DNA from: an uncultured archaeon
Lineage (GTDB): Archaea; Iainarchaeota; Iainarchaeia; Iainarchaeales; 1-14-0-10-31-34
NCBI GenBank assembly: GCA_964442255.1
Contig: CAYTYC010000004.1
Span: forward strand, 1,416-65,415
Length of the DNA stretch: 64,000 nt
Direction of reading: 5' to 3'
Numbering within the stretch: the stretch's first letter is position 1; each line of letters starts with the position of its first letter. The notes under the pieces were generated by a model, which saw only the letters and a program-made list of their open reading frames with translations, had not been told where the DNA came from and did not search any database. The position numbers were made by a program, and so were the translations under genes. Below are positions 6,642-59,962 of the stretch, piece by piece.

Positions 6642-6733
6642 TGCCGGTGGAGGGAATTGAACCCTCGACCTCACGATTTCTCCGCTGGAAAGCGTATGAG
6701 TCGTGCACTCTAACCAGGCTGAGCTACACCGGC
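6642..6733 (-). tRNA. tRNA with anticodon CAU (elongator Met or Ile2) carrying a ~17-nt intron at 37/38
   Basis: Reverse complement reads GCCGGUG-UA-GCUC-AGCCUGGUUA-GAGU-G-CACGA-CUCAUA[CGCUUUCCAGCGGAGAA]A-UCGUG-AGGUC-GAGGG-UUCAAUU-CCCUC-CACCGGC-A. The G1-C72 pair argues against an initiator tRNA. Confidence 0.8.
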
Positions 6734-15471: not shown

Positions 15472-15543
15472 CATATTTATGGGGGATTCGACTGAAAGGA
15501 GAATCCCTCGACGTATCCTGGCGTAAACCGACAGTGGCGGTTT
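15472..15543. repeat. Conserved two-hairpin element (copy 2), immediately 3' of tRNA-Leu
   Basis: gcatatttatg-GGGGATTC(N11)GAATCCC-tcGACGTATcctggcGTAAACCGACAGTGGCGGTTTgc. Compare 3979-4052. Confidence 0.7.
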
Positions 15544-15658
15544 GCAGGGGGGAGGATTCGAACCCCCGAAGGCACTAAGCCACAGCGCCTAATCCCAATC
15601 AAACCCGTAGGTTACGATTGTCTGAACGCTGCTCGTTTGACCGCTTCGATACCCCTGC
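15543..15658 (-). tRNA. tRNA-Leu (anticodon CAG) with a ~32-nt intron and a long variable arm
   Basis: Reverse complement reads GCAGGGG-UA-UCG-AAGCGGUCAAA-CGA-G-CAGCG-UUCAGA[C..intron..]G-CGCUG-(UGGCUUAGUGCCUUCG variable arm)-GGGGG-UUCGAAU-CCUCC-CCCCUGC-A. A73 is the Leu discriminator. Confidence 0.75.
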
Positions 15659-21959: not shown

Positions 21960-22466
21960 CTATTTTTTCCTTAAAACAATTAAAATCCCTGCAACCACTA
22001 AAACCAGGGCAATTGCGCTTATTTCCGGAACGGGCTGCCCCTGCTTCCCGACCGTAAAGCGGGTTTTCATTTTGTTGTTTTCTTTTTCTGTTTCAGCAGG
22101 AACAACAAGGGCTGTTGCTTCCGCGTATGCCGTGTAGTCCTTCCAGTCCTCAAGCCCTGCGCCTGAAAGGTCGAATGCTGTTGTGAATGTGAATTTGTTT
22201 CCCGGGCTTATAATCCTTGATGTGCTGTATACTGCAGTTCCCGGGTCTTTTTCCAGCCAAAACCCCACCGTCACATCAGTGGAGGTTATGCGCAGGTTTT
22301 TCACGGTTGCCTTGAATGTCATTGATCCTTCTTTGTCCACCACAATTGGAACAGCCTCAAATTTAACCATTTCAACGTATTCCTTCGGCGCAGATGCGGA
22401 ACCCGCCGCTGCCGCAAAAAACAGAAGGAAAATAAAACACAAGGCATATGCGGTTTTCATTCGCAT
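21960..22466 (-). CDS. Second small secreted CARDB/Ig-like surface protein with the same C-terminal PEI-x-AI plus TM plus RKK tail
   Basis: Signal peptide MKTAYALCFIFLLFFAAAAGSASA, a ..MTFKATVKNLRITS.. domain, and C-terminus ..PVPEISAIALVLVVAGILIVLRKK. Confidence 0.6.
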   Translation of the reverse strand: MRMKTAYALCFIFLLFFAAAAGSASAPKEYVEMVKFEAVPIVVDKEGSMTFKATVKNLRITSTDVTVGFWLEKDPGTAVYSTSRIISPGNKFTFTTAFDLSGAGLEDWKDYTAYAEATALVVPAETEKENNKMKTRFTVGKQGQPVPEISAIALVLVVAGILIVLRKK

Positions 22467-22495: not shown

Positions 22496-23995
22496 TTATT
22501 TTGTCCCGAGGTGGCTGAGGGTCGGGCGGAGGCTTACCCTGTACTGCTTTCTTTCCGCCAGCTTCACTCCCACGTCGCTCACAGACAAAATGAATATTTC
22601 CGCTTCCACGAGGTCCCGGGCTTCCTTTTTTAGTTCCACAACCCTTTCCGCCCCCAGCGCAAAACCCACTCCAAGCGAATAAAACTGGGAAAGGATTTGA
22701 ATCATTTCATCAACCAAAATTGCGTTGGCGGATTTCCCGAAAAACTGCACCGCGTTTGGGATGAAAACAAACGAGTTAATGCCTTTCACTGCCTTTCTTT
22801 CATAGTGTTTCCTTATTCCCGCAAGCACTGAATGCATCACCATTAAGGCGCTTCTTTCGTCCGTGCCCTGCATTTTTATTATTCCCGCCCTTCCAATGTT
22901 TTTTTCCCAGTTTTTGGACAATTCCTGCACCTCGTTTCCGGAAGCAAACAGGCCTTCATACCTTTTTTCAATCAGCTTCAGCATGCGCACCATTCTCAGC
23001 ATCTGGTTCTGCTTTAATTCCGCCTGCCTGCAGTGGTTCTTGACTGCGCCAATAAGTTGCCCAAAGGAATCAATTTTCTCCATTTTTTCCATAACCTCCG
23101 AGATTGTGCGGGAGGCGGTGTTTTTTCCTGCCCCAAACAGTTCCAGCAATCCCTTTGGGCTGATTAAATTCAGGTCCACTTTGGCGTCCTGTGCTGCAAG
23201 AAATTCTTTCACTGGAAAGCCCATTGGCTCAAGCTCTGCCTGAAACCGGCTTAACTCTTTTTCCTGTTCGGAGGGCTTGTTCATTGAATTAAAGCTTTCA
23301 TTCCAGTCAAACACTACGGCGGGAGAATTGCTTAGCATCACGCCTTCCGCGACCAGCTGCATTGCGTGTTTCCTGTCCTCCGGGTTTTCCCCGAAAATTC
23401 CTGTTTTAAGGAAAAGCTTTAACGGCTCTTTTGCCGGCTTTCCTTCCTTTGTCAGCCCCAGGAAAACTTCTCCCCGTGTTTCAGGCTGCATTTCCCTTTG
23501 CCCCGGGAGAACGCTTTTTCCGCTTACAAGGGGAAGGGAAAGGGGGTCGGTGAAAAAGGCGTTTTTTGTTTCCTCGTCCGCCTTGCTTAATTCGGTTAAC
23601 TCCAAATCATAGGCCCCTGAAATCTGTTTCACAAACTCAACCGAGGCCTCAAGGTTTTTGAGCTGCGAGTTAACGGTTTTCCTGAATTCCTCTTCTTCGT
23701 ACACGCTGTAGGAGGGCCTGGAAGCCAAAACAAAAAATTTGAGGGTCTTGTTTTCTTCGTGTTTAATGAATACGCTTGCTTCCTTGGGAAAGGTTTCCGC
23801 AAACCCTTCTGTTTCGCCTTTCGCGTGGAAAACCTTGTACGCCTCCACAACAACCCCTGAGATTTTGCCTTTTTCCTTCACTTCAATTACAACCAGTACC
23901 ACGCTTTCGGGGTTGGAGTAAATGCTTACCTCGTGGTCGTAAAACATTCCTTCAAACAGCACGTGCCAGGGCCCGTGCGACAGGCTGAAACGCAT
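22496..23995 (-). CDS. Hypothetical 499-aa protein (possible degenerate P-loop, uncertain)
   Basis: Long ORF with an ATG start. FGAGKNTASR is only a weak Walker-A-like segment; no firm family assignment. Confidence 0.45.
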   Translation of the reverse strand: MRFSLSHGPWHVLFEGMFYDHEVSIYSNPESVVLVVIEVKEKGKISGVVVEAYKVFHAKGETEGFAETFPKEASVFIKHEENKTLKFFVLASRPSYSVYEEEEFRKTVNSQLKNLEASVEFVKQISGAYDLELTELSKADEETKNAFFTDPLSLPLVSGKSVLPGQREMQPETRGEVFLGLTKEGKPAKEPLKLFLKTGIFGENPEDRKHAMQLVAEGVMLSNSPAVVFDWNESFNSMNKPSEQEKELSRFQAELEPMGFPVKEFLAAQDAKVDLNLISPKGLLELFGAGKNTASRTISEVMEKMEKIDSFGQLIGAVKNHCRQAELKQNQMLRMVRMLKLIEKRYEGLFASGNEVQELSKNWEKNIGRAGIIKMQGTDERSALMVMHSVLAGIRKHYERKAVKGINSFVFIPNAVQFFGKSANAILVDEMIQILSQFYSLGVGFALGAERVVELKKEARDLVEAEIFILSVSDVGVKLAERKQYRVSLRPTLSHLGTK

Positions 23996-24835: not shown

Positions 24836-25213
24836 TTAATCCCGGAAAATTTTTTTCAATGCATCCAGTAAATTGCCTGAGCCTTTTGCGGCCCTTGGGG
24901 CAAGGTTTTTGGTTTTCCATGTGTGGCTTTCCGGCGCAAAAAAGCCTTCCCCAATTTTTGACCCCAGGTCTTCGGCTATTTTCGTGAACACCTCTCCTTT
25001 TGGCCCTTTTGGCGAGGCTTTTTCAACTTCTTCCCCTATTCCCGCCGAAAAGCCTTTTGCAGTTTCTTTTCCGACTTTTCCGGCTCCGCTGAAAAAGCCT
25101 GCCGAAATTATTAGCGCCCCCAAAATCAGGCTCAAGGCGGCAAGCCACACTATTCCGGTGTACAGGGAAAAAAGCAGGATAAACAGCAGCAAAAGCCAGC
25201 CGAAGGAGTTCAT
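24836..25213 (-). CDS. Small membrane protein, last gene of the giant-protein island's co-directional array
   Basis: 125 aa with two N-terminal TM helices and a Gly/Lys-rich soluble tail. Confidence 0.45.
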   Translation of the reverse strand: MNSFGWLLLLFILLFSLYTGIVWLAALSLILGALIISAGFFSGAGKVGKETAKGFSAGIGEEVEKASPKGPKGEVFTKIAEDLGSKIGEGFFAPESHTWKTKNLAPRAAKGSGNLLDALKKIFRD

Positions 25214-25534
25214 TTAATACCCTCCCAGCAGTCCGCCGTATCCTCCGCCTCCGCCCAGCCCTCCGTACATGTCGGGTTCAGAGGATTTTGTCTTGAATCC
25301 GAAGACAAGCGAAATTGCAATCAACGCTATAACTGCGTACATCATGTAGTCGTCCAGGCCCGCGGACTTTATCCAGTACATTGCGCCAGCCGAAATTATG
25401 AGGAGGATTGTGGTGGAAATTGAGCGCATTGAAAGAATCATTATCGCCACTATCCCGAACACAATCCAGGTTTGGCCGTATTGGATTGCCAAAAACATTA
25501 AAAGCACTGAAACCATGAAGGTAAAGGTGTCCAT
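25214..25534 (-). CDS. Small membrane protein with a Gly-rich C-terminus
   Basis: The start is taken at MDTFTFMV so that it abuts, without overlapping, the gene upstream. It has 3 TM helices and a ..GGLGGGGGYGGLLGGY tail. Confidence 0.4.
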   Translation of the reverse strand: MDTFTFMVSVLLMFLAIQYGQTWIVFGIVAIMILSMRSISTTILLIISAGAMYWIKSAGLDDYMMYAVIALIAISLVFGFKTKSSEPDMYGGLGGGGGYGGLLGGY

Positions 25535-25538
25535 TTTG

Positions 25539-25790
25539 TCAGTCCGCCATATGCATTTTTGAAATGATTTCTTTTCCGAATGTAGCGAAAATGAATACGA
25601 ATACAACAATCCATATGAGCTCCGGGTGCTGGTAGAAGGTGAGGTAAACCACGATTATTGCAAACAGTATTGCGAGTTTGGCGCTTCCCAGCACGCCTTT
25701 CGCCCAGCCGTAAATCAGCACAATGAAGAACAAAACCAGCGCGGCCCAAATGTGTGTTTCGAATTCCGTCATCAGCAAAAGCATTTCCAT
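25539..25790 (-). CDS. Small membrane protein (2-3 TM)
   Basis: 83-aa hydrophobic ORF packed tightly in the array. Confidence 0.4.
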   Translation of the reverse strand: MEMLLLMTEFETHIWAALVLFFIVLIYGWAKGVLGSAKLAILFAIIVVYLTFYQHPELIWIVVFVFIFATFGKEIISKMHMAD

Positions 25791-25794
25791 TTTT

Positions 25795-26115
25795 TTATCC
25801 CTGCCTCATTCTTGTCCCAAAACCCCAGATTATCACTGAAAGGAAGCCTATTCCCAGGAGGGTGTATAAAACGTATAGGGAGGAAAAAATATAACCGTAT
25901 TTGAATACCATGAACCATATCAGGATTCCTGAAATTATTAAGGTCAGCGTTCCTGTCCCCAGAAAGCTTCTCACGGTCATGAAAATCGTGAAAATCAGGA
26001 TTAACTTGAACACTATGTCTGCGGGCTTGTATAAGTACATCACCAAAGGAACGAGCAGGGCTATCGCAAGGATTCCCGCGATAATGAACAGAACCACGCT
26101 TGCCTTTTGGTTCAA
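25795..26115 (-). CDS. Small membrane protein (4 TM)
   Basis: 106-aa hydrophobic ORF that overlaps the next gene's start by 4 nt. Confidence 0.45.
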   Translation of the reverse strand: MNQKASVVLFIIAGILAIALLVPLVMYLYKPADIVFKLILIFTIFMTVRSFLGTGTLTLIISGILIWFMVFKYGYIFSSLYVLYTLLGIGFLSVIIWGFGTRMRQG

Positions 26116-26483
26116 CCCGGGGGCCTCCTTCTCATTTGCTGAACCATTCTCGTCCTTGCGGCCAAGTCAACTCCGCTGCTTACCGGCGACTCCATTCCTT
26201 TTCCTCCTTTGCTTCCTCCGGCTGTCACGAAGAAGAAGTCAATCATGAGGGTGGAGATTCCGAACATCAATAGCATGTACAGCACGTACACCGAACCGAA
26301 AAACATCCATGCGTCAAACAGCACAAACCACCCTATAAAAAGGATTAAGACAACCTGTGCCGGCTTGTTTTCCACGTGGTTCCGGATGAAGCTGATTATT
26401 GTAAGCAAAACAAATATCTTGATTATGAGCTGCAAATCGTTCCAGAACTCGAACAGCCAGAAAAACCCTTCCATAGTAAGCAC
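26112..26483 (-). CDS. Small membrane protein (3 TM) with a basic C-terminus
   Basis: 123-aa ORF immediately downstream of giant protein 1. Confidence 0.45.
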   Translation of the reverse strand: MLTMEGFFWLFEFWNDLQLIIKIFVLLTIISFIRNHVENKPAQVVLILFIGWFVLFDAWMFFGSVYVLYMLLMFGISTLMIDFFFVTAGGSKGGKGMESPVSSGVDLAARTRMVQQMRRRPPG

Positions 26484-26595: not shown

Positions 26596-29500
26596 TTAAT
26601 TGCCGGTGGTAATGCAGCTTCCTTCCCCGAGCCCGAGCTCGAACTGGTTCAGGCTTTTTTTGCCTGCAGGCGCATAATTCAGGAGCGCGGTTTCATTCCA
26701 GTAAAATCCCGCCTCTGTTGCCGTGTCCTCCATGCAAACTTTTCCTTCTTCCACCAATTCAAACAGCTGTTCCAGTGCCTCTATTCCATGGTTTTGCTGG
26801 TTTAACTCCATTCCCTGCAATCCGTTTAAAACCATGAAATCATTTATTGCCGTATCCGGGGAAAAGAATTTAAGTGAAGCAGGCTTCTGCGCCTTTAACT
26901 CCATATTGGTTTCAGTGGGCGTGTAGAGGATTGTTCCAAGGTATTCGGTTCCGGGAAGGCTTACGGGTTCCCAAACCGTTTTGTACGCGTACTGGAAATT
27001 CAGCGTGTCTTTGGATGTTGCCCGTGAATCCGCCTTGTAAACTATTGCCCTTTGCGCAGGAAGCCCCCCAAAATCATAGCACTGCCCAAGCCCTTTCCAG
27101 TAGGTTAAATTGTCCCCGGCACTTTTTCCTTTCCCTGTTTCTTCCACATGGTAGGCCGCGGTCAAGGGCTTTTCGCTTTTTGTTCCCTGCACTTTCATTA
27201 TCACAGGGGTTGCAAGCGACGGGCTGAAAACCATTCTTTTTTTGTTTCCCGCGCCGCTTATTGCAAGCAGTTTTCCCCTTGTATCTGTTTCCGAGTTCAG
27301 GTAAGCCAAATCCTTTTCTGTGGCTGTTTCCAGTTCAACTGAAGCCATTTCGGCCGGCTGCCTGGTTAAGGGCTCTGTTGAAACAATGTCCCTTGTTTTG
27401 CTTAACTGCACTTCTTCACCTGTGTAAGCGGTTCCATAGCCTATCCTGTCCTCATCTAAATACCCTAACCTGCCGTTGAAGGGGAGGTAGTAGAATATGC
27501 TGTTCGGGGAGGGCTTTTGCAGGCGCTGGAATTCCACTGAAACCGTTGCTTTTGGGTTTCCATCGGCAGTGAAAAGCGCCCAGTCGTCCGCGTAATCTAT
27601 TCCGATGTCCACGGCGTACAGCCCTGCGTCAGGCAGTTCGTATTCATCAAAGTACCTGTTCCTGAAGCTGAACCTTGTCCTGTCATTATAGTATGCACCT
27701 ATTTCCTGCATTGCCTCTGTTCCGACAGCGTCATCAAGTTCAAGTGAAGGAACCTGGAAAAAAGTGCTTGTGGAATAGTATTTCACGAAATCCTTCTGGA
27801 AGTCGGCGGAATACCCGTCCCTGATCAAATATGCCTTGAAGTGCATCAGGTCGTGCATTTCTTGGAGTACCTGTTTTATTTTCTCGGAATCCGTTGAAAC
27901 GCTTTGCCCGCCAAATTTCACGCTTTCCTGGTTAACCAATTCTCCCAAGGTTGGATCAAGGGCGTTCAGGTAAACGTTTAAGGGCTCAAGGTCGTTGAAA
28001 AAAACTGTGCTGGGCTCTATCCAGCAGTTTAGGCTGGCGCTTGAGGAGTTGTTCATTAAACTGAATTCAAAGTACTTGTCGTCCTGTTTGTCCCCTTCCG
28101 CAGTGAGGTGCTCCAGCTGTATCGAGCCGGTGTAAGGGGTTTCGCTTTCCGGAAGTTCTTCAAACCTGCAGCTTGCGGATGCCGTTGCCCCGTTTTTTCC
28201 TATTCCTGTTAATTTCTTTTCGCATTCCGTTTCCCCGTTGTATAGGTATTCAGCTTCTTCCGGAACATTTAGCCTGAACAAAACATTCACGTCCTGAGCC
28301 TCCCCTGTGTTGTTTTTTACCGTTGCGCTCAAAAGCGCGTCACCGCTTTCGCCCAGGGAATTCCCTATCTCGCTTATTCCGATTTTTTCTTCCGGAACGG
28401 AATGGCTTTTGGCTTCCGCGTTTTGTTTTGCGGCTTCACTTTCCCCCGGCAGGTCTGGGCAGGCAAAATCGTATCCGTTTTCTTTCATGAAATCATTTAA
28501 TTTCGCGATTCTTTTCCACATCATTATGCTGAACTGTGTTGCGTCGCAGTAAATTGCTTCCTCATTCCCGGAATCGCATTCATTCCATGCAATTGCCTTG
28601 TCTTCAAACCCCCAGTCCAGCTTTATTTTTGGCGTTATGCCTTCCCCTGTCCTGCCTTTGATTGTTCCGTCACCGGAAGCGCAGGCAAACTGGTTTTGCT
28701 CCAGTTCCGGCAGCTTTTGTTCTTCTACCCGGGTTATAAACCTTAAATGGAATTTTTGCGTTACCTGAAGCAGGCCAAGGTCTTTCACGTCAAACATTGA
28801 GAACTTTGCGTCCGGGTTTTTTCCGTAGCTTGTCGGGTCCGCGTGAATGTGCCTTCTTGCCTTAACAGTTAAAACGTCATAGGCCGGCTCCTTTTGGCCG
28901 AGGGAAATGTTCCTGAAAATCAGCCCAACCGTTTCTTCGCCTGGCGTCTCGGAAATTTCAGGAAGGGTTTCATCCCAGTTCGGCTCCACGTCAAGCACGT
29001 TTTTTCCGTGTTCGCTTAGGCTTAGCCCGTTCCAGTCCCTGGGAATGCCGTCTCCTCCAATGCCCCGCCCGCTGAGGTTTATTGTGTAATCCCCTAATTC
29101 GTTTGTTTCCGTTTCTTTGCAGGGGTCGCTGAGCCAGGCGATTATTTCAGGGATAAAAGAGGCGCCAATGCAGGCAATTCCCCACGGGCCGACACAGAAA
29201 CCCAGCCCAATTGCGCCAAATGCCTTTGCGGCAAAGCCGGCGACAGCCACCGAATATGCCGCTGCCACGTTTCCCGCAGCCACAACCCCCGCGTGTGCGG
29301 CGGTCCATTTTGCGAGTTTTCCCGTGTTTTTCTTTCTTGCCTCATCCCATGCGCACACGCTTGCCTTCACATTAACGGTTGTGAACACGTCACTGTTCAC
29401 AAGCGTTACCGCGTCCTTTGACTCGCCTTTAAGAAGCACATATTCGTAGTTGTTTGGGTTCACCAGCGAAAACGGCTCCTTGTCTTCCGGGTCAACCAGC

Positions 29501-32500
29501 ACGTCAAGCGTTCCCAATTCAACCCAAAACGGGTTTTTTTCCGTGCGGGCCTCCACTTTTACCCCATAGATTCCGGGCACTGTGCCTCTGCTTACGGTTA
29601 CTTCAGCCGAACCGTCCTTGCTTAAGGTTATTTGTGGTGCCCCGAACCTCCCTATTTGGGGGCTTAGGCTTATCCCCCCTTCCGTTGTCCCGCCCCTGCA
29701 GCCGGGGTCATTGTGGCAGAAAATTACGTCAACCCTGGTTTTGCATTCATTGACCACGGAAAAGCTGTCGTAATGTTCGCCTGAATCCACCTTTACCGGG
29801 TTGTTGAACCCTTCCCCGATTTTCAGGCATTCCCTCAAATTTATTGCCCCAAGGTTTGCTGTAAGGGCGTTGCTGTAAACTGTGGAAAGCCCTGAATCCG
29901 TTAAAGCCTCGGCCTGCACTGTTACCTCAAAGTGCGCCTCTTTGGTGTCCTGTTCGGGGGTGAAAATCAGTGTTCCCACGTACTCCGCATCTGCCTCCAC
30001 CGAATTAAAAAAGTAAGCCGGGCGCATTTCCTGCAGTTCGTTTGTAAGGGATTTCCCGTTTTCAATCTTCAATTGTATTGTTCCGTTCGGCGTTCCTGAA
30101 GTCCAGCGTATTCTTGCGCTTAGGTTGCGGAGCGCAAGGGGCGTGTGCGTGTTTTTTTCCAGACACCCGTTGGTTATGTAGAAGTTATGTGTTATTGTTT
30201 CACTTTCTTCAATCAACTCCTCCCAGCTTGCCCCGTCAATCCCCAAACAATCATTGTTTTCCAGTTCCGCGCCTGTTCCAATGTTTGCGTTAAACCCGAC
30301 ATCAAAGCTCCAGTCAAATGTTCCGTCAGTAACCACAATATTGTACACTCCGTTCACTGACCCTGTTTCCTCTTCAGGAAGGCCTTGGTTAATTGCCGCA
30401 TAAAACTGTATCGGCGGGTCCGCAAGGCTTTTTTTGGGAATAAGCTTTCCGATGAAGCCGCTTGCCTCAATGAACCTGTTCATGCCCTGCAAGTCCAAAT
30501 AATACCCGAGATAGCTCCTTGGAAACTTTTTTCCGATGAATTCAATTTCCTTTATCGTTAGGTTGCGGTTGATTTGGTTGAATAATTCAATGTTTTCCCT
30601 GTGGCTTTTTTTCCCGAACTTTTCCAATGAAAAGCTGAGGGTTTTCGGGCTTACATCCAGAATGTTTGCGTCAACCCTTATTAGGGTTTCCGCGGGCTCA
30701 AACCCGAATTTTCGTGTCGTAAAGTAAAGCCTTGCCCCGGGGCGCATCTCCTGCGTTAACGTGAAAACGGCCTTTCCGTAATTGTCTGTCTCCAGCTCCC
30801 CGCGCTGGCCCATCAGCGCGCTCCTGTATCCGTCGATTTCCTTGTCCACGTAAACATTCGCGAACCTTACAGGAAACCCGTCTTCATCCAGCACAGTCAC
30901 CCTTATTCCCGGCCTTGTGAAGGAAAAAATCTGCGCAGGCTCAACCTGCACTTCCATTTCCTGCATTGAATCAACATCTATTTCCGCGTAATGCCCAAAC
31001 CTTTCCTCCGCTCCCATGTCTGTGAGCTCAAAAATCTTTAATGCAATCGGAACATTTCCCGAGGGAAGGAGGGCCTTGAATTTGAGCGTACCGGTTATTT
31101 TTTTTCCCTTTGAAAAATTCCCTAACTCAATTCTAGGCAGCTTATTGGTTTCATTTATTGGATTCAGTGAGCTTTTTATTGTTCTCCCGCTTGCGTTTGT
31201 CAGGGTGTACTCCAAAAACTCCAGCGCATTCAGTTCTTTCCCTGTTTTGCTTGAATTGGAAACATAAATTTTTGCGTTTTCGTAAACTTTTTCGCCGTCA
31301 TTCAGCACCTCAAACCTGTACTCATATTCCCCGTTCACTGTTGCATTAAAATTGTCTTCCGTGAAAATGTACGGCTCTTCATTCAGGTCCTTTAACCCTT
31401 CAAATGTTACGCACACGCCTTCCTGCCTGTCCGGGCTGCAGACTGGCTCTGCAGCCGGGCCGTCCACGGGAATCTCCGGCTCATCCCCTCCGCCTTCCCC
31501 GCCTTGCGGAGCGCGGACCTCAAACTCCTCGTCAAATGTTAAGGCATACAAAGGCTGTTTTCCCGCAATCCCTTCATCTTCCGGTTCCCTGTCAAGGGCC
31601 TTGTTTTCTTTTTCCCCCCACGCACGGTAATGGAAGCTTATTTTGTCCCCTGCCTCCAAACCCTCTTTTATCCTGAATTCCACCGCAATTTCGTATTCCC
31701 CTGCCTCGGCCGGAATCCAGGTAATGTTAACCCATTTTGCGTTTGAATTCGTTAAATTGTCCAATGCCAGGTCCAGGGCTTCCCCGTCAGGCGGATGATA
31801 GGAGGAACCCATAACCGAAAAGTTTCTTCCCCCCGCACTGTATCCTGTGATAAGGAGATTGTCGTTTTCAACCCTCTCCGAATCGCCTGTCCGGAAATGC
31901 ACTCCAGCCTTCCTGTAACCCGAATTTTCGGGAATGCGGAGCTTCAATACCGCCCTATACTTTTCCCCTGCGCGCAGGGAATTCACCCTGTTTTCCCCGG
32001 AATAAAACTTTATTCCTTTCTCCAGCCCGAGCTTTTGCCCCGGAACTTTCTTCAATTCCAGTTTTATGTTGATGTTGTGTGTGTAGTTGGGCTTCAGGTA
32101 GTATTCTTTGCTTATTCCTGTCTCGTAATCCTTGTGCGTTGCCTTGACGTAAATGCTTTTTCCGGCCGGAAGGCTTAACGCAATCTTCCCTTCAGGGAGC
32201 GTATGGGTTTCCTTTTCCCCTGACTTGAATACAGCCTCTATTTTTGCTCCTTTAATTGTTTCCCCGAATTCGTTTTCCACGCGAATGTTCACGTTTGCGT
32301 TGTCCATTTCCATTTTCACAAGATAGGCGACAATTGAATCCTCCTGCACACTCTTCACCGCACTTTCCCCCCTGTAAAAGCCTTTTTCCGCGTACGCGTA
32401 ATAATTCCCGGATTCAACCGCCTCAAAGACCGCAACCCCGTCCGCGTTTGTGTCTTCAGGATGGTTTCCGGAAATTCTTCCGCTTTCAACTGTCCTTCCG

Positions 32501-33957
32501 TCCTCGTACTTCAGCCAAATTTTTGTCCCCTGCACCCCTTCACCTGACTCTTTTTCCCTTGCCTCAACAACAATTACCCCTTTTTTGTGCCTCACAGGAA
32601 CAAACGGTTCATCTGGTGCAGGAGGGCAATCGGGAATCCTCTCTAATTCAACCACCCGGTTTCCGTCCGAAAAGAAAATGTTTTCCATGAAAGGGTAAAA
32701 GCATTCCGCGGAAACACTTAACTCGAGTTCTTCTTCCGGAACAACGAATTCCACGTCTCTTCCCGTGTTGCGCGTGTTTTTTGTCCCAAGGTTTTTTCCG
32801 CTTTCCGCGCCCTTCAGCAAAACCAAGGCATTTATGACCCTTTCCCCTGAATCAATGTCAAGGACAGTTATTTTCAGTATTCCCGCAACGCTTTCATGCC
32901 CTTCCGGTGGGCCGTCTGCAGGCTCTCCTCCCGTGCCGTCCCCGCCTTCGGGCGGAACAAAAGCCTTTTCCAGAACAATTCTTTTTGACTTTTCGTCCCT
33001 TGCCCCGAGGTAGATTCCTTTAACCTCTTTCTGCACGTACTCTAAGTCAGGATCGCTTACCACTACATCGTATTCCCCGGGGTCGAGCCCAAAAACAGCT
33101 GTGCCAATTGAATCAGTCCAGCCTTCCCCAATTTTTGTCCCGTACTTGAATACTTCCACAAGCATTCCCTGGAGTGCAGCGCCCTCAAAATCTTCTGCCT
33201 CAATGTAAAGCTTTCCACTTAAATCCGGATCGTTTCCATTCAACGGCTTCAGCAGAATGTCTTTCGGGTTTCCGTTTACCACAGTGCGGGAATTGAATGA
33301 CTCATATCCCGCAATTTCCGCTTTTTCCACAACCAGTGTTCCGCAGCCTTCCGGAACCTCCGCCAAAATTTTTCCGTCGTAATCCGTGTCCCTTAATACT
33401 GGTTCATCCAGTTCTTTCCCTGAACTGCATGAAACGTAAACGGTTATGCTTTTTCCTTTTATGAGCCGCGAGTCCCCCGAGTCCTTGAACTGCAATAAAA
33501 CCTGCGTTGACTGCGGTTTAATCAGCCGCAGCCTTACCTCAAATTCATGGTCCTCCAGAACAGCGTATTCTTTTTTGAAGCCCTCAAAATTTTCTGTTCC
33601 CCTTATTTCCAGGGAAATTTTTGTTCCCGGCTTGGCGTAAACGGTTGCGGTGCCGTTTTTCCCTGTCTCTTTAACTGTTTCCTGCCCGTCAATTTCCAGC
33701 CTTAATTCTATTCCCCTTAACGGGCTGTCAGCCTGGTCAACCACCTTAAAGGTCGCAATTGCCTCCAATGGCTGGATTTCCGAAGGAAAAAGGAATAAGA
33801 TTCCAAGCCCCGCAAGGGCAATAATCGCTGCAATAAATAGAACAAGCGACGGAATTACCCTGTCTATGGGGTCTATTACCTTGTATACCGGCACTTTGGC
33901 GTTTATTTTGTCCAGTAACGCGTACCATTTGTCCTCTAAGGAGGAATAAAAGCCCAT
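26596..33957 (-). CDS. Giant surface protein 1 (2453 aa): conserved cytoplasmic N-module, one TM helix, many CarboxypepD_reg/Ig-like repeats, and a C-terminal head homologous to that of giant 2
   Basis: N-terminus MGFYSSLEDKWYALLDKINAKVPVYKVIDPIDRVIPSLVLF plus TM. Repeated V.V.D..G.PL.G..V.L...G beta-sandwich modules. A Gly/Ala-rich hydrophobic segment sits at ~29140-29300. The C-terminal block carries YCDATQFS, YLIRDGYSADFQKDF and YYLPFNGRLGYLDEDRIGYG. Confidence 0.85.
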   Translation of the reverse strand: MGFYSSLEDKWYALLDKINAKVPVYKVIDPIDRVIPSLVLFIAAIIALAGLGILFLFPSEIQPLEAIATFKVVDQADSPLRGIELRLEIDGQETVKETGKNGTATVYAKPGTKISLEIRGTENFEGFKKEYAVLEDHEFEVRLRLIKPQSTQVLLQFKDSGDSRLIKGKSITVYVSCSSGKELDEPVLRDTDYDGKILAEVPEGCGTLVVEKAEIAGYESFNSRTVVNGNPKDILLKPLNGNDPDLSGKLYIEAEDFEGAALQGMLVEVFKYGTKIGEGWTDSIGTAVFGLDPGEYDVVVSDPDLEYVQKEVKGIYLGARDEKSKRIVLEKAFVPPEGGDGTGGEPADGPPEGHESVAGILKITVLDIDSGERVINALVLLKGAESGKNLGTKNTRNTGRDVEFVVPEEELELSVSAECFYPFMENIFFSDGNRVVELERIPDCPPAPDEPFVPVRHKKGVIVVEAREKESGEGVQGTKIWLKYEDGRTVESGRISGNHPEDTNADGVAVFEAVESGNYYAYAEKGFYRGESAVKSVQEDSIVAYLVKMEMDNANVNIRVENEFGETIKGAKIEAVFKSGEKETHTLPEGKIALSLPAGKSIYVKATHKDYETGISKEYYLKPNYTHNINIKLELKKVPGQKLGLEKGIKFYSGENRVNSLRAGEKYRAVLKLRIPENSGYRKAGVHFRTGDSERVENDNLLITGYSAGGRNFSVMGSSYHPPDGEALDLALDNLTNSNAKWVNITWIPAEAGEYEIAVEFRIKEGLEAGDKISFHYRAWGEKENKALDREPEDEGIAGKQPLYALTFDEEFEVRAPQGGEGGGDEPEIPVDGPAAEPVCSPDRQEGVCVTFEGLKDLNEEPYIFTEDNFNATVNGEYEYRFEVLNDGEKVYENAKIYVSNSSKTGKELNALEFLEYTLTNASGRTIKSSLNPINETNKLPRIELGNFSKGKKITGTLKFKALLPSGNVPIALKIFELTDMGAEERFGHYAEIDVDSMQEMEVQVEPAQIFSFTRPGIRVTVLDEDGFPVRFANVYVDKEIDGYRSALMGQRGELETDNYGKAVFTLTQEMRPGARLYFTTRKFGFEPAETLIRVDANILDVSPKTLSFSLEKFGKKSHRENIELFNQINRNLTIKEIEFIGKKFPRSYLGYYLDLQGMNRFIEASGFIGKLIPKKSLADPPIQFYAAINQGLPEEETGSVNGVYNIVVTDGTFDWSFDVGFNANIGTGAELENNDCLGIDGASWEELIEESETITHNFYITNGCLEKNTHTPLALRNLSARIRWTSGTPNGTIQLKIENGKSLTNELQEMRPAYFFNSVEADAEYVGTLIFTPEQDTKEAHFEVTVQAEALTDSGLSTVYSNALTANLGAINLRECLKIGEGFNNPVKVDSGEHYDSFSVVNECKTRVDVIFCHNDPGCRGGTTEGGISLSPQIGRFGAPQITLSKDGSAEVTVSRGTVPGIYGVKVEARTEKNPFWVELGTLDVLVDPEDKEPFSLVNPNNYEYVLLKGESKDAVTLVNSDVFTTVNVKASVCAWDEARKKNTGKLAKWTAAHAGVVAAGNVAAAYSVAVAGFAAKAFGAIGLGFCVGPWGIACIGASFIPEIIAWLSDPCKETETNELGDYTINLSGRGIGGDGIPRDWNGLSLSEHGKNVLDVEPNWDETLPEISETPGEETVGLIFRNISLGQKEPAYDVLTVKARRHIHADPTSYGKNPDAKFSMFDVKDLGLLQVTQKFHLRFITRVEEQKLPELEQNQFACASGDGTIKGRTGEGITPKIKLDWGFEDKAIAWNECDSGNEEAIYCDATQFSIMMWKRIAKLNDFMKENGYDFACPDLPGESEAAKQNAEAKSHSVPEEKIGISEIGNSLGESGDALLSATVKNNTGEAQDVNVLFRLNVPEEAEYLYNGETECEKKLTGIGKNGATASASCRFEELPESETPYTGSIQLEHLTAEGDKQDDKYFEFSLMNNSSSASLNCWIEPSTVFFNDLEPLNVYLNALDPTLGELVNQESVKFGGQSVSTDSEKIKQVLQEMHDLMHFKAYLIRDGYSADFQKDFVKYYSTSTFFQVPSLELDDAVGTEAMQEIGAYYNDRTRFSFRNRYFDEYELPDAGLYAVDIGIDYADDWALFTADGNPKATVSVEFQRLQKPSPNSIFYYLPFNGRLGYLDEDRIGYGTAYTGEEVQLSKTRDIVSTEPLTRQPAEMASVELETATEKDLAYLNSETDTRGKLLAISGAGNKKRMVFSPSLATPVIMKVQGTKSEKPLTAAYHVEETGKGKSAGDNLTYWKGLGQCYDFGGLPAQRAIVYKADSRATSKDTLNFQYAYKTVWEPVSLPGTEYLGTILYTPTETNMELKAQKPASLKFFSPDTAINDFMVLNGLQGMELNQQNHGIEALEQLFELVEEGKVCMEDTATEAGFYWNETALLNYAPAGKKSLNQFELGLGEGSCITTGN

Positions 33958-33985: not shown

Positions 33986-36900
33986 TTATTGAATACAGGT
34001 TTCTTCTATATTAAGCTTTTGTATCACCGGTTCAAGGGGTTCCGCAACCGTTTCAGGATTCCACCAGAATTCCGCCAGCACTTCACTTTTCGTGTCAGTC
34101 AGGCACACCTTTTCCTGTTCCATTAAGTCAAACAGGTCTTCAACTGTCTTGACTTCATCTGACCTGAAGCCTGAAAGCGTTGTCGCGCCTGTAATATTTT
34201 CCTCCACGGCTGTGTGGAATTTCAGGGTTCCGCTTTTTCTTGCAACACTTAATTTTGAAACCGCTTCCTGCGGGGTGAAGAAAATGGTTTGCATGAACAC
34301 TTTCCCGTACTTCACCGGGTCATTCCAATGGAAACCGTATTCGTACAAGTCGCGTGAAAGAGGGGTGGAGCTTCCATGGGTGTCGGGAACCTCAAACAAG
34401 TCGTTTGGCGCATCGCCGAAATCCCTGCACGCGTTTTCCCCTTCCGGAAGGCCAACCCATTTTGTTAAGCCGTTGTCTCCCAGGTTTTGCGCTTCCCCGT
34501 CAACTGTTGCGGTGTAGAAAGCGTAAACTGACTCTGTTCCCGTGTCCTCTATTTCCATTACAACCGAGGTTGCCTTGGACGGCGAAAAGTCCATTGAAGT
34601 CAGTTCATCGTTGTTTCTTTTTACTTCCAGTATTACTCCCCTTTTATCCATGTTTAAAGCCTTAAGCGAGTCCTCCACCTTTGTTTCCAGCGTGTGCACT
34701 TGGGCCTGCCCCTGCGCGCTTGATGTATGCACAACATCCCCTGTGTTGTTTATGTTTATTTCTTCTCCGCTGAAATTCACTCCATAACCTATCCTGTCGT
34801 TGTCCATTCCAATCCTTCCGTTGAATGGAAGGTAATAGAACGGGGAGGGAGGCCATGCGTCCGCCTTCTGGTTCAGGTGAACCGTTATTTTCGCGTTCGG
34901 CTGCCCGCCAACAAACAGGGTGTAGCTTTCGTCGTTGAAGCTGATTTCAATTTCCACTTCATACAGGCCGGGCTTCCTTATTGGGGCGTTTACGCTCAGC
35001 ATTTTTGCCGCGTAATCGAATTCAAACAGGCTTGGGTTGTTGAAGTATGCCCCCAATCCTTCGTTTCCCATGTAGAATTCCGGCGCCTCAAAGAATGCGG
35101 AGGTTGTCGCGTATGAATGGAAGTCTTTCTGGAAGTCTGCGGAATAGCCGTCCCTTATAAGGTATGCGTTGAATTTGTACAACTGCCTTGCCTTTTCCTT
35201 TTGAATCGGGTCCAAAACTTCCCCTGATTTTTCCATTTCCTCAAAGAATTTCGGCAAAGTCAGCGTGGAATAAGCGCCGCATATTGCCCCGCTTGGGCAG
35301 TACGCCCCCATTGTTTCCAGCACCCCGTTTTCTCCAACGAGTTTATTGATTTTTTTCAGTATTTCCGTGCTTAACTGTGTTGCGTCGCAGTAAATGTAGT
35401 CCTCGTTTCCTTCATCGCACCGGTAGTCGCCGGTTTCCGCGTTATGCAAATCCCAGCGCCAGTCAAACTTTACCCTTGGAACAGCGTTTGCCCCTGTGCT
35501 TCCTGTCTTGTTTCCGAGCCTGCATTCCCCGTAGCCCTGGCCGTGGACCGGAATGTCGCTTTCATCATATGAAAGGAACTCCAGATTAAAGTATTTGTCA
35601 ACTTTTTCTGTCCTGTCCACAAGCCTGTTTGCAAATTCATCCAGCCTGTTTTCTGCAGACATTTCCTCAAAGTCTTCCAGGTCGTCTTCATCCAGTTTTG
35701 CGTTGTCCTTGTGCTTGTAGAAGAACTGGGTTCCCGTGACTTCCAGAACCCTGAACAAAGGCCTTAACGGGTCTTCTTGCTTAAGGTTTCCTGTGTTAAT
35801 GAATTTTAACTCTATTTCTTCAAATGTTTCCCCGCCTTCCACCGTGTTTTCCCCCACAAAAGAGGCTTTTGTGTCCCCGCGTTCTACTGTGATCCCGTCT
35901 TCCACTATTTTTTCCGGCAAAACCTGCTTGAATAACTCCCATTCATCCTGTATTTCCACATCCGCCTGCAGTGAATTAATTATCACCGGTTCCTGGTTAA
36001 TGTAATTAATTACTGTATTGGTTGCAAACCCGATTATCCCTGTCCATATTGGCCCCAAACCGGTGCTAAACCCTGGAAGCGCCCCAAGAATGTTTCCAAC
36101 CAACGGAATCCCTGAAAGCAGTTCAGTGACAAACATTCCGGTCGGCTGAACCGTGGCGGAAACCAGTCCTGTTGGTTGTGGGGATTCTTTTGGTGCAACA
36201 CCGCTTTCCGGAGGGCTTTCACCCGATTCAGTTTCTTCGCTGCCACTGTCTCCGCCACTTATGGCGGCTCCTTCTTCCGTGCTTTTGGTGTCAGGCGACC
36301 CTGTTGAAGTTTCCCCTGTTGTCGTGCTTGTAGTTGAACTTGTTCCACCTGGAGGCCCGTGCTTGTCTGGATCTGTTTCACCCACGGTTAGACCTAAGTT
36401 TGGGTTGGTTAGGGATGGATTGCTTTCTGGAATTTCCGGAAGGTCTAGGTTAATCGGCGTTCTACCACGTGAGTCTGGCTCCACAACTTTTTCCTTGCCA
36501 TTCTTGCCTAAGTCTGCTTCCCTGGGTTTTTTTGTTCCATTCAATTTGTTTTGAATGAAGTCCGTGGCAATGTGCACCCCGACTCCAATCAGTGTCGGGA
36601 TTATTGCGTCTTTCATTGCTTTCCAGATGCTTTTAACGTCAAACTCCAGTTCAACTTCTTTTGAATGGCAGTAATTCTGGACTGTAAGCGTGTCATAACC
36701 GTCGTACATTACATCCGGGTCGTCGTAAATGTCCAAAAAGTATTTGCTTAGCCTGATGCAGCCAATTCCCTCCAGCTCCGCGTCAATTCTCTGGATTTCC
36801 CTTCCGCTCACCTCCCCCGCGCCTGTAACTTTCACGTAAATCGGGTAAAGCCCCGGAAACTTGCCTGAATCATGGAAAACCGTTACCTCCTGTTCGCCTG

Positions 36901-39900
36901 TCGCGGGCAGTTTCACTTCCTGCCGGCTTAAATGCAGCGGGCTTTCAAACTCAAACCTTGTTTCTCCCCCGCATTCCTTTGTTTTCACAAGGAAAGAGTC
37001 TGTTCCTTCCACCGGAATCTTCAAATAATTCTTTGAAACGGACACGCAGTCAAGGATGTTGTTTACGGTAATGCTGGTTGAAAGGAAGTCTTCAACCCAT
37101 TCATCTTCCCCTTCCACTTCATTTCTTGCCCTGAAGTCAACCCTTGCCTTTGCCGTGCCCTGCATTCCGCCAAGGGGAGTGAACTCCAAAAAGCCCACGA
37201 TTTTTGCTTCCGGTTCAATCCTTCCCACAAGCTTCCTGTAATAATTGTTCCTTAACTCCATTGGCGTATCTGCGGCCGTGAAACTGAAAACGCCTATCTG
37301 GTTGCTTTCCCATTCAACTTTTGCCTCCAAATCCTGAATCATCACAGGCCTTCCGTCAACCGTGCAGTTGTTTTGAACCTCAAGGCTTAAGGTTATCGGG
37401 TCTCCCTCTGTCCTGCCGCTCCATGCGTTCTGCGTAACATTCAGGCAGCCCGGCTCATCCACTTCCCCGCCTATTCCCACTGAAACAATTAACGGAATTT
37501 CAAACACCCATTCCGATTCATTCGAGCCAAGCCTTACTTCAACCTGCCCTTTCATCTGGAACCTGTTGGAGAGGGTTCTGCCCTCGTTTGAAAGCATTAC
37601 CCCGACTTCAAATTCCTTGCTGTCCCCGCTCCTTAAAATTCCGCCCGCGTAATTTCTTTCCAGCGAATTATTCATTGTCTCCGTGTCCAGGATTCCGCGG
37701 AAGTTTCCCGTCACCCCAATGCTTCTTACTTCCAAGTCAAACTGCACCAAGCTCTCCAATTCAAGCAATTCAATTGACGAAGGCTTTTTCGCCGTGTTCA
37801 GGGAGGAACTCATTTTTTTCGGCGAAAAGGACACGATGTTTCCGTCCACCCACACGCTGTGCTCTACCGGATTAAAGCCCTGTTTTTCTGCCTTTATTTT
37901 CAGCCTTGCGCCCGGTTCCTGTGGGGGAATAACCAAATCAATGTTTCCCCTGTCCGGGAGTTGGCTGGAAGTAAAGCCTTCATCCAGAATGGTGCCGAAT
38001 TTGTCCATTGCCTTTACGAACACGTCTCCTTCTTCCAGGCCTGTTTCAAGGTCTTTCACTTCCACGGTGATTGTTTCCTTTATTCCTGAGGCAATTGTTT
38101 CCGGCTCAACATTTATCCCCAAATTTTTTGCCGCGTCAATCTCAATCCAGTTTTCATTGAAGTAAACGACTTTTCCTCCTTCCCCGCGCTGTTCAACCAA
38201 CCTTATCCTTAACCCTGTTTCAACCGGATTTAGTGTGGTAAAGGTTAATGAGCCGCTGATGCTTTTGTTTGGGCTGAAGTCAGGCAATTCAATCAACGGT
38301 AGCCGGGATTTTTTTTCCGCGTTTCCCCTTACCGGCTGGTTGTTGGGTTTGGTGATTGAGTATTCCCCGAAGCCCAAATCTTCCCCGGGGTTGTCTATGC
38401 GGAGCGTGGCGTTTGTGTAAATTCTTTCCCTTTCATTGTTCACCAAACTGAAAACAAATTTGTATTCTTTCAGCAGTTCCGCGTTGTAGGGCTCTTCCCC
38501 CACGTCTTCCGTCAAACGCTCGCCCAAATCAATTATTGTCGCGTTAAAGCAAAACCTGTCATCGCAGAGAGTGTCGCCTTCCCCGATTGAATAGATTTTT
38601 TCTTTTGCCTGCGCGTACAGTTCCTCTTCCACAACCCCCGGCGCGGGGTCCCTTACAGTCTTTCCGCCTGTTTTTCCCCATGCCCTGTAATACAGGTTCA
38701 CCGTGTCTGAGAGTGAGGCAAAGTCTTTTACCTGGATTTTTATTTTCGCGAAGTAAGTCCCCTCTGTCACTCCCCTGCCGGCGTTTGTCCAAACAATGTT
38801 CGCCCACTTCGCATCCTCGCTTGTCACGCTCCTTAAATCTTCTTCAACGTTGTTTCCCGTGTACTTAGTGAAAAGCATTACCTTGTCCGCGGTGGAGTTA
38901 ACTGTCTTGATTTTCACCACATCGTTTTCCATGTACGCCTCTTTTCCTGCGCGGAAATGCAGCCCGATTTCATCGAATGACTGGTTTTCCGGAACCTTTA
39001 ACTTGAATTCCGCGTAATAGCTTTCGCCCGGCGCAAGCACGTCTTCCACAACCCTGTCGTCTATTGTAAGCCCCAAAAACTCCATTACAATTTTGTCTTC
39101 TGTTGCAACAACAAGCCTGTCCAGTATTATTTCCCTTCCTTCCAGGCTGTTTGGAATTACCCCGATTTTTTCTCCCCGGTAGGTCGCGTATCCGTCCATT
39201 GTCACCTTGAAGTAAACCGTTTTTCCCGCCTTTGTTGTGTACAGGGAAACGCCTTCCGCGTTTGTCGGCACGGTTTCCAGCTCCGAATCATCAGCTGAAT
39301 CATAGAAAGTCACAAAAGCGTTCGCGATTGCCTCGCCTTCCTTGTCTTTTACCTTAACCCTTATTGCGCCTTCAGGCAAAACCATTGCCACAACCAGTTC
39401 AAAGTCTTCCGCAATCCTTCCCGTAAAGTATCCTTTGTCGCTCCACCCGTGCAGGTTTCCGTATGAGGCGTATGCCATGTAGGTGCCGTCCTGTATTCCC
39501 TTGAATGTCACGTAGCCGTTTGAATCGGCGTCAACCCTTTGCCTTTTTGCGGTCACCGGCTTTTGTTCCTCGTCAAACAAACTCACCAATGCGCCTATGA
39601 CAGGCTTTCCTGTGCCTTCATCTATTACCCTTACCTTTAAATCCGCGCCGTTCACGCGCGGAATGTACCTTGTCAGCTTGAGCACGTAAATTCCGTCGGA
39701 AACCTTGAACGGCCAGTCATCGTAAATCAGGTAATCCTCGTGTTCAACCTTTACCCCGTATTCCCTGCCGGTGTCTTCAACCAAAAACTTTACTTTTGCA
39801 AGCTTGTCTTTTTCTGTTGTGCGCTGGTCTATCAGCGCTCCCGCATCATTGTACAGGCTGACTAATGCGCCGTCAATCGGCTTGTTTATGCCGGTTTCCT

Positions 39901-59647: not shown

Positions 59648-59962
59648 TTAAATTGTAATGCCGCTTTTCAGGGCTTCGCTTACAATGGAAACCTGCCTGC
59701 TCAATTTTTTGAATTCTTCCGGGGTGTAGCAGAGGAAGTCAACCGGATAATCTAAACGCCAGTGCCTGTGCAGGCCTTCTGCTCTTCCGAATTTTTTTCT
59801 CTTAAAATAAGGGGAAACAATTATTAGGTCTACATCGCTGTCTTTGCGGTGCCTTTTCCCTGCCCTTGAACCAAATAAAATGACCCTTTCCACTTTCCTT
59901 TTTTCAGATACCTCTTTTTTGAATTTTTCTATCCCTTTGATTAAAGCTTCTCTTTCGCCCAT
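59648..59962 (-). CDS. Nucleotidyltransferase (MNT) antitoxin-like protein
   Basis: ILFGSRAGKRHRKDSDVDLIIV matches the minimal nucleotidyltransferase motif G[SG]..x9-13 D.D; 104 aa. Confidence 0.7.
   Translation of the reverse strand: MGEREALIKGIEKFKKEVSEKRKVERVILFGSRAGKRHRKDSDVDLIIVSPYFKRKKFGRAEGLHRHWRLDYPVDFLCYTPEEFKKLSRQVSIVSEALKSGITI

Follow-up and report, generated by a model that had tools for sequence, protein, structure and literature searches.

The question raised by this locus is what hydrophobic segments of roughly hairpin length are doing deep inside the extracellular regions of giant archaeal proteins. The window, which here means the whole stretch of 64,000 nucleotides that was analyzed, comes from an uncultured archaeon of the Iainarchaeota (assembly GCA_964442255.1, contig CAYTYC010000004.1, positions 1,416 to 65,415) and contains a row of genes for four giant proteins, G1 to G4. 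An initial annotation had noted a Gly/Ala-rich hydrophobic segment in G1, G2 and G4, labeled all three as fusion-peptide-like, and proposed that they insert into the membrane of a partner cell or act as re-entrant anchors. The three strings were found in the minus-strand open reading frame (ORF) translations; the positions given for G1 held, whereas those for G2 and G4 moved from about 36010-36180 to 36008-36112 and from about 53225-53370 to 53215-53343, respectively. Sequence comparison assigned the G1 and G2 segments to one homologous module and the G4 segment to an unrelated context. Our preferred interpretation, which we hold with about even confidence, is that the G1/G2 loop is a helical hairpin with a probable disulfide at its base that provides a second anchor, out-in-out or re-entrant, in the archaeon's own membrane.

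Apart from the N-terminal anchor, no other part of G1, G2 or G4 is as hydrophobic as its segment, in agreement with the original description of membrane-type hydrophobic elements within otherwise extracellular giants. When the best window of each protein was compared with 2000 shuffles, the best 45-residue window was matched by 1/2000 shuffles for G1, 23/2000 for G2 and 10/2000 for G4, whereas the best 19-residue window was unexceptional (584/2000, 1681/2000 and 546/2000, respectively), indicating that the unusual feature is a hairpin length of moderate hydrophobicity and not its intensity. No comparable hydrophobic segment was detected in G3 by the hydropathy scan or the shuffle test. Kyte-Doolittle maxima were 1.7 (G1), 1.6 (G2) and 1.9 (G4) for the segments, compared to 3.0-3.3 for the N-terminal anchors. 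The Hessa biological scale was applied as simple position-independent sums over 19 residues, a rough test in which the best sums were +4.1 kcal/mol (putative helix a) and +3.0 kcal/mol (putative helix b) for G1, +5.8 for G2, and +2.4 and +5.9 for G4. All lie above the level of about 0 or below over ~19 residues at which integration by the translocon is expected, and the N-terminal anchors gave −3.2 to −7.1 kcal/mol; the value for G1 helix b was the lowest of that protein outside its anchor. Gly makes up 17-20% of all three segments and Ala 30% of the G1 segment. By pattern match alone, small-xxx-small pairs number 13 in G1, where a strict GxxxG occurs just once, compared with three times in G2 and twice in G4.

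The unexceptional 19-residue windows, together with the fact that conservation of the G4 segment was not demonstrated, would be expected if these were three unrelated Ala/Gly-rich patches produced by composition. We find this scarcely credible, considering that the 45-residue windows are exceptional, and for G1 and G2 it is already contradicted by a module that, with its motif frame, is positionally conserved in about 120 homologs.

G1 and G2 are collinear paralogs whose segments fall between the same aligned blocks; the 45-residue stretch of G2 aligns with the whole G1 hairpin, and a G-x-G-P motif is present in both. A word-index search with the C-terminal half of G1 returned no homolog, although G1 itself was in the collection, and G1, G2, G3 and the 624-aa protein encoded in the same row were each a singleton cluster in the protein collection. 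A pattern scan of GTDB genomes identified 12 loci from uncultured archaea, including two titled Candidatus Iainarchaeum and two with bacterial or thaumarchaeal bin names that we suspect to be mis-binned, and an exhaustive HMMER search yielded 564 homologs, 251 of them below 1e-30. In the related loci, homologs of four of the small transmembrane (TM) proteins come after the tandem giants, and the loci L009 and L010 also encode the 499-aa protein found in the window. Literature searches found no paper describing this giant-protein family.

The module was examined in alignments of 59 and of 121 members. Its frame consists of a strand ...V-x-A-x-x-C-x-W, the loop, an acidic (E/D)(D)P-C motif, and a strand L-x-D-Y-[VI]-I-N-L-x-G. 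Loop length among the aligned members ranged from 17 to 858 aa, the classic form having 60-85 aa, in which a Gly/Ala-rich first hydrophobic segment is followed by a tight turn and a second, usually stronger hydrophobic segment, with 0-1 basic residue over a core of ~40-60 residues. In the orthologs, helix b was far more hydrophobic than helix a (Kyte-Doolittle ~2.6-3.0 versus ~1.7-1.9). The loop core contains 17% Gly and 48% Gly, Ala, Ser and Thr combined, as compared to 7% and 24% in the N-terminal anchors, and the consensus of the family alignment shows GxxxGxxxG, which as a pattern match agrees with the glycine-zipper spacing (i, i+4, i+8). A CP.C motif lies 17-25 residues, or one helix length, ahead of the outer frame cysteine in 9/59 members.

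The frame cysteines tend to be kept or lost together: among the 121 members, 87 had both, 29 had neither and 5 had one (Fisher p = 3e-22, uncorrected for phylogeny). This is the pattern predicted by a disulfide at the loop base, and it places both loop ends on the oxidising outer side. A Cys1535-Cys1613 disulfide is probable in G1, while G2 has lost both frame cysteines. The CP.C or CIPC motif was seen at the inner end of helix b in P0003, P0007, P0010, P0024, P0031, P0041, P0053, P0060 and P0097, and the density of CxxC per 1000 aa was 1.8 in loops versus 0.47 elsewhere. Cysteines also occur within the hydrophobic stretches of G1 (C1588 and C1596) and G4 (five Cys).

The hydrophobicity of the loop varied widely across members, with Hessa sums spanning −4.2 to above +14 kcal/mol. 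In 25/59 and 32/121 members, helix b fell below 0 kcal/mol, on par with the N-terminal anchors, and 33/121 members had loops of at least +5 kcal/mol. In P0008 the loop is a short Trp/Phe-rich stretch of 28 aa, WSAFWRLSWSKMF, and some other relatives are likewise short-looped. It is well established for Sec-dependent export that the producer's membrane keeps a 20-residue Ile/Val/Leu/Ala segment whose hydrophobicity equals that of a signal anchor, and in the strongly hydrophobic homologs the hairpin therefore almost certainly anchors in the cell's own membrane. The G1 and G2 loops are most simply explained as weaker versions of this hairpin. In one subfamily, a 300-400-residue insert rich in Ala, Thr, Ser and Gln separates the two hydrophobic segments and carries Cys clusters near its middle, for example HGCCSAEGESC and ITCCSVCPTGPCGACTPQC; these long-insert relatives include P0017, P0019, P0030, P0032, P0035, P0055 and P0066 as well as the giants at 4598-12100 of L009 and 4604-12094 of L010. 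The insert may form an antiparallel helical arm with a Cys-rich tip.

AlphaFold2 modeling of G1 aa 1300-2453 from a 34-sequence alignment gave a mean predicted local distance difference test (pLDDT) score of 79.3 and a predicted template-modeling (pTM) score of 0.76. Residues 1545-1609 appeared at pLDDT 24-38 as an excursion between the strands at aa 1525-1533 and 1616-1624, and in the more hydrophobic ortholog P0029 helix b was α-helical (pLDDT 60-82) and continued without a break into the GEDPC motif and the strand after it. Buried β-strands in a confident model, which the initial annotation had named as the outcome that would speak against its proposal, were thus not observed. The very low confidence across the loop, its wide variation in sequence and length, and the general knowledge that helices of soluble assemblies, too, are packed together by small-xxx-small motifs are what one would expect of a flexible, hydrophobic, low-complexity surface used for protein packing outside any membrane, either in oligomerisation of the giants or by burial in a surface complex. 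This role appears quite unlikely to us, however, in view of the many homologs in which 18-25-residue Ile/Val/Leu/Ala runs are as hydrophobic as true TM helices and stand at a constant distance of one helix length from the frame.

The flank that follows helix b is strongly acidic (39 K+R versus 136 D+E), which fits a location outside the cell and argues against a single out-to-in span. Beyond it, the ~840-aa C-terminal region of G1, which matched no Pfam family, contains many invariant cysteines and β-sandwich domains. Members without a TM-grade loop keep the same C-terminal region, which places this region outside in all members. Cysteine co-occurrence, the acidic C-terminal flank and the homologs free of a hydrophobic loop therefore all pointed to both flanks being on the same side. 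With the C-terminal region on the side of the N-terminal ectodomain, an even number of spans is required, so that wherever helix b spans the membrane, helix a must span it too. Crossing by helix b alone, which would leave the C-terminal ~840 aa in the cytoplasm, would accord with the greater hydrophobicity of helix b in the orthologs, but it is very improbable: the acidic flank, the co-occurring cysteines on both sides of the loop, the retention of the C-terminal region in relatives without a hydrophobic loop, and the invariant cysteines and β-sandwich domains of that region are all at odds with it, and it would also make the lytic transglycosylase (SLT) domain of G4 cytoplasmic. N-glycosylation sequons had observed/expected ratios of 0.55 in the long loop inserts and 1.17 in the ectodomains, a difference too weak for compartment assignment.

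In the arrangement that we favor, a Gly/Ala-rich and almost uncharged loop of ~45-75 residues would exit the extracellular β-sandwich after C-x-W and re-enter it before (D)P-C and DY[VI]INL. The loop would most likely form two antiparallel hydrophobic helices, with Lys1578 at the turn in G1 (Table 1), and a disulfide between the frame cysteines would staple its base, so that the hairpin is probably fastened onto the extracellular β-domain. The membrane would hold the giant at two points, the N-terminus and a site two-thirds of the way down the chain; such two-point anchoring would seat the flanking β-domain on the membrane and leave a ~1450-aa N-terminal arm and the ~840-aa C-terminal region pointing outward. 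Through the small-xxx-small faces of their helices, hairpins could pack together or with the small membrane proteins encoded downstream. We infer in this arrangement the helicity of helix a, the disulfide, the membrane that is entered and the packing partners. Since the G1 loop is marginal, and since G2 lacks both cysteines and carries a tether, insertion may be only partial or interfacial in these two proteins. Hydrophobic helical hairpins as such are known; what is new is their insertion into the extracellular β-domain of a large uncharacterised family of DPANN giants.

Several observations weigh against an anchor in the cell's own membrane. The G1, G2 and G4 copies are only marginally hydrophobic, and on the simple scale used the translocon would often let them pass. 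AlphaFold2 modeled neither helix a nor the turn with confidence, helix a and the whole G1 loop being mostly coil at pLDDT 24-46, and positive charge, which a cytoplasmic loop would be expected to have, is rare in the turn, most turns being uncharged. Double loss of the cysteines is largely confined to the G2-like long-loop subfamily and may reflect few independent events. The Cys clusters inside the loops of the long-insert relatives suggest that such loops may not cross the membrane. A Thr/Ser-rich linker such as that of G2 looks extracellular; the Ser/Thr-rich linker that had been reported ahead of the G2 segment was recovered as a Ser/Thr/Glu/Pro-rich region at aa 1581-1716.

The initial annotation had treated the three segments as one class, a grouping that does not survive: G1 and G2 share a homologous module, whereas the context of the G4 segment is unrelated and no homologs of that segment were found. 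The G4 stretch lacks the C-x-W and DPC frame of G1 and G2 and is an independent, analogous two-helix stretch. It is followed by a Cys-free charged region that looks helical by eye and then by an SLT domain (PF01464), which scored 45.6 bits against a cut-off of 21.3 (E 5.9e-12) and retains the catalytic Glu-Ser motif (...IIETESSGN...GATGLMQIMP...). Transglycosylase matches in G4 were also obtained with NCBIfam and PHROGs, and in the C-terminal region Pfam, NCBIfam and PHROGs matched the SLT part only; the C-terminus of G4 is thus a predicted lytic transglycosylase. A word-index search detected no relatives of the C-terminal 782 aa or of aa 2050-2300, a metagenome scan found none of the C-terminus, and aa 1100-2731 had no BLAST match among 150 family proteins and the 12 loci. 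Peptidoglycan can be reached by the SLT domain only from outside the cell, so the G4 stretch must either not span the membrane at all or do so an even number of times. DPANN genomes are reported to encode lytic transglycosylases of the murein type, and the peptidoglycan-degrading enzymes found in them have been taken to hint at parasitism (PMC10936187).

These features of G4 bring in the other proposed function, a deployable element whose loop is exported intact and whose hairpin inserts in the membrane of a partner upon contact, to anchor, permeabilise or fuse it, in concert with the G4 SLT domain. The G1, G2 and G4 copies are too weak to be sure stop-transfer signals; the short Trp/Phe-rich loops that replace the hairpin in some relatives are typical of interfacial binding; in G4, a 49-aa hydrophobic stretch of two helix lengths lies upstream of a muralytic domain; and the presence of an SLT domain in an archaeon points to the wall of a bacterium as its substrate (PMC10936187). 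Gly/Ala-rich GxxxG stretches can insert after secretion, as does the N-terminal hydrophobic region of Helicobacter VacA, a single helix that was experimentally shown to form channels in target membranes (PMC4926140). The module resembles the VacA region in its Gly/Ala-rich, moderately hydrophobic composition, in its repeated small-xxx-small motifs, and in being the only membrane-length hydrophobic segment of a large exported protein, but it is internal, of hairpin length, known here from sequence, and without sequence or fold relationship to VacA. The tape-measure protein pb2 of phage T5, for which a channel-forming role in the target membrane has been proposed (10.1101/2022.09.20.507954), resembles G4 only, in having a ~46-49-residue, two-TM-compatible stretch upstream of a peptidoglycan-degrading domain within a long, largely helical polypeptide. 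By contrast with pb2, G4 is N-terminally membrane-anchored, has ~2000 aa of immunoglobulin (Ig)-like ectodomain, carries an SLT domain rather than a zinc peptidase, and places ~440 aa between the stretch and that domain; PHROGs matched the SLT part only, and no homology between G4 and pb2 was shown.

For the family as a whole, deployment into a partner seems doubtful to us, although not to be dismissed. A quarter to 40% of the homologous loops are as strong as true TM segments, and export would leave them trapped in the membrane of the producer; fold comparison brought up neither fusion proteins nor pore-forming toxins; and the G1/G2 hairpin has β-sandwich flanks and no shielding amphipathic helices. 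Of the two functions first proposed, re-entrant anchoring is therefore the one favored by the loops of true-TM grade (25/59 and 32/121). Partner-membrane insertion by the weakly hydrophobic copies of this locus is possible, above all for G4, for which alone it is more likely than overall.

Among known membrane-active elements, the module would work like a TM helical hairpin with glycine-zipper faces. Like TM or re-entrant helical hairpins, it has two adjacent, putatively helical hydrophobic segments of ~20 residues, a tight and nearly uncharged turn, both ends on the same side, an acidic outer flank and a conserved helix-length spacing. Unlike them, it lies between strands of an extracellular β-sandwich, some ~1500 residues from the start of a giant protein, a disulfide apparently staples its base, and its homologs range in hydrophobicity from true-TM grade to none. 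With the Gly/Ala-rich class I fusion peptides of viruses, and with class II and fusexin loops, which disulfides hold at the tip of a β-sandwich, it shares the moderately hydrophobic Gly/Ala-rich composition, the emergence of the loop from a β-sandwich and the cysteines at the base, but it is far longer (45-75 aa), has no cleavage-generated N-terminus, and is in many homologs too hydrophobic to stay outside the producer's membrane. Foldseek searches with the G1 model (aa 1300-2453) against PDB and BFVD gave only generic matches of the Ig, macroglobulin (MG) or FN3 type, with query-normalised TM-scores of at most 0.12. The fusion-peptide-like label was accordingly unsupported as a family assignment, as there was neither fold similarity to viral fusion proteins of class I, II or III nor a heptad-repeat context in G1 and G2. 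In the colicin pore domain, the diphtheria toxin T domain and Bcl-2, an uncharged, Ala/Gly-rich hairpin of ~40-50 aa is buried in an amphipathic all-α bundle. Those hairpins can enter a membrane as a unit, as is proposed for the one described here, whereas the present module has β-strands as its flanks and no predicted shielding helices.

Table 1. Features of the giant-protein locus and other elements of the window (positions are those of the window; a dash denotes the minus strand).
Feature	Residues (aa)	Position	Strand	Remarks
G4 giant	2731 in total	51334-59529	-	N-terminal anchor at aa 45-68; SLT domain near C-terminus
G4 SLT domain	2551-2601	51727-51879		PF01464
G4 Cys-free charged region	~360 in total	52120-53208	-	between hydrophobic stretch and SLT domain
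G4 hydrophobic segment	2063-2105	53215-53343	-	within Cys-rich fuller stretch
G4 fuller stretch	2059-2107	53209-53355	-	putative helix a VTSIAAWGAGCFVGCGGCAVIT, turn KLG, putative helix b FIPGAVVDCLLLTCGPPVAVGLI
624-aa protein	624 in total	49444-51318	-	between G4 and G3; pilin-like N-terminus MKEKAFTLFTALVAFVLIVL
G3 giant paralog	2620 in total	41474-49336	-	no hydrophobic module; internal negative control
G2 giant paralog	2434 in total	33986-41290	-	collinear with G1
G2 weak amphipathic segment	1561-1580	36551-36610	-	
G2 disordered linker (136 aa)	1581-1716	within 36143-36610	-	precedes hairpin; basic start, then Ser/Thr/Glu/Pro-rich
G2 fuller stretch	1717-1761	36008-36142	-	Gly/Pro-rich
G2 hydrophobic segment	1727-1761	36008-36112	-	
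G1 giant	2453 in total	26596-33957	-	Ig-like/CarboxypepD_reg ectodomain; hairpin module
G1 signal anchor	36-58	33784-33852	-	
G1 module and frame	1535-1613	29119-29355	-	Cys1535 (29353-29355), Trp1537, loop aa 1538-1612, Cys1613 (29119-29121)
G1 hydrophobic segment	1553-1606	29140-29301	-	string present in ORF translation
G1 putative helix a	1556-1577	29227-29292	-	AGVVAAGNVAAAYSVAVAGFAA
G1 putative turn	Lys1578	29224-29226	-	
G1 putative helix b	1579-1609	29131-29223	-	AFGAIGLGFCVGPWGIACIGASFIPEIIAWL
G1 conserved DYTINL	at 1623	29074-29091	-	strand after frame
Conserved N-terminal stretches		~33853-33957 (G1), ~41177-41290 (G2), ~49229-49336 (G3), ~59398-59529 (G4)	-	
Five small multi-TM proteins		24836-26483	-	directly downstream of G1
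499-aa protein	499 in total	22496-23995	-	sub-threshold HerA/DUF87-like match; P-loop not canonical
168-aa secreted protein	168 in total	21960-22466	-	other end of row
191-aa multi-TM protein	191 in total	60340-60915	-	upstream of giant row
MNT-type nucleotidyltransferase and 117-aa ORF		59648-60294	-	overlapping
G2 acidic repeats	~345-450	~39940-40260	-	four in tandem
G3 low-complexity stretch	~1290-1380	~45200-45470	-	just past end of similarity to G1/G2
92-nt tRNA		6642-6733	-	
tRNA-Ala(ggc)		15543-15610	-	ARAGORN call

The content of the window is archaeal, with a family B DNA polymerase, HisRS, TrkH and tRNAs. All giants and their neighbors in the gene row are encoded on the minus strand, G4 being the first and the 499-aa protein the last. 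Each giant begins with a conserved stretch of ~35 residues, followed by a strong signal anchor and Ig-like domains (CarboxypepD_reg and Big_1). The stretch common to G1-G4, which reads ...LEDKWY..LDKI..K.PVYK.ID.....IPSF., presumably lies in the cytoplasm, where a dedicated partner in export or assembly could recognize it as a tag. Searches of Pfam, NCBIfam, PHROGs and PDB sequences assigned no family to the C-terminal ~1400 aa of G1 and G2, to the small TM proteins or to the 624-aa protein. Among the MG-type Pfam matches (bMG3/MG4), none but generic Ig-like families reached its cut-off, and the weak similarities to MG-domain and complement proteins are explained by Ig-like domains of a generic kind. 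An identity as alpha-2-macroglobulin or complement C3 was rejected, no C[GLA]EQ thioester motif being present in any giant.

The neighbors of the giants include further candidate surface components. The 624-aa protein has a type IV pilin-like start, a weak ComGF match at its N-terminus (E 0.0075) and 16 cysteines. Downstream of G1, small TM proteins of 123, 106, 83 and 131 aa have counterparts of 38-64% identity that follow the last giant in the same order in related genomes (loci L001-L010), and the 499-aa protein is syntenic in L009 and L010, at 31-32% identity. An assignment of the locus as type IV secretion- or conjugation-like, which would call for a VirB4/HerA-type ATPase with a canonical Walker A motif next to a VirB1-like SLT protein and small TM proteins, was not supported: the DUF87/HerA match of the 499-aa protein reached 18.3 bits against a cut-off of 23.2, and this protein gave no PDB or NCBIfam match and had no Walker A motif in the matched region. 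The row could encode a contact-dependent apparatus of a DPANN archaeon, in which the N-terminally anchored giants would reach a bacterium, the SLT domain of G4 would cut its wall, the hairpins would insert in the partner membrane to tether it or open a conduit in the manner suggested for phage T5 pb2, and the small membrane and HerA-like proteins would form the base; we regard this as unlikely.

Other features of the row were also recorded. The 191-aa multi-TM protein belongs to the exosortase/archaeosortase family (TIGR04178, 38.4 bits against a cut-off of 23). The 168-aa secreted protein ends in PVPEISAIALVLVVAGILIVLRKK, a sorting-signal-like TM helix with a basic tail, and may be an archaeosortase substrate, to judge from this C-terminus; the giants themselves have no sorting-signal-like C-terminus. 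Between the archaeosortase gene and G4, an MntA-like gene (E 8.6e-7) overlaps a 117-aa ORF that is HEPN-like by eye and without family match, and the two look like a toxin-antitoxin pair. The four acidic, Cys-containing repeats of G2 (ICDNG.DDD.DGY.D.DD.DC) look like calcium-binding motifs, and G1 has no equivalent at the same position. The low-complexity stretch of G3 is rich in Tyr, Asn, Gly and Ser (...YNLGYGMHQNYFGYNPLSTGAYYQNPNSYNNFY...). Elsewhere in the window, the 92-nt tRNA scored 60.6 bits with Rfam, was missed by ARAGORN and probably contains an intron, and the tRNA-Ala(ggc) called by ARAGORN was unconfirmed by Rfam.

For the annotation of this family, default topology calls could misplace the ~840-aa C-terminal region in the cytoplasm, whereas the cysteine frame and the flank charges argue otherwise. 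The hairpin module, with two frame cysteines and a loop of ~55 residues, is a defined and mutable handle that could serve to tell a doubly anchored surface scaffold from a membrane-penetrating device. The attachment of DPANN archaea to other cells, and their exchange with them, are largely unknown in molecular terms, and a conserved locus that combines four giants, a pilin-like protein, small membrane proteins and a wall-cutting domain without an archaeal substrate provides a concrete candidate.

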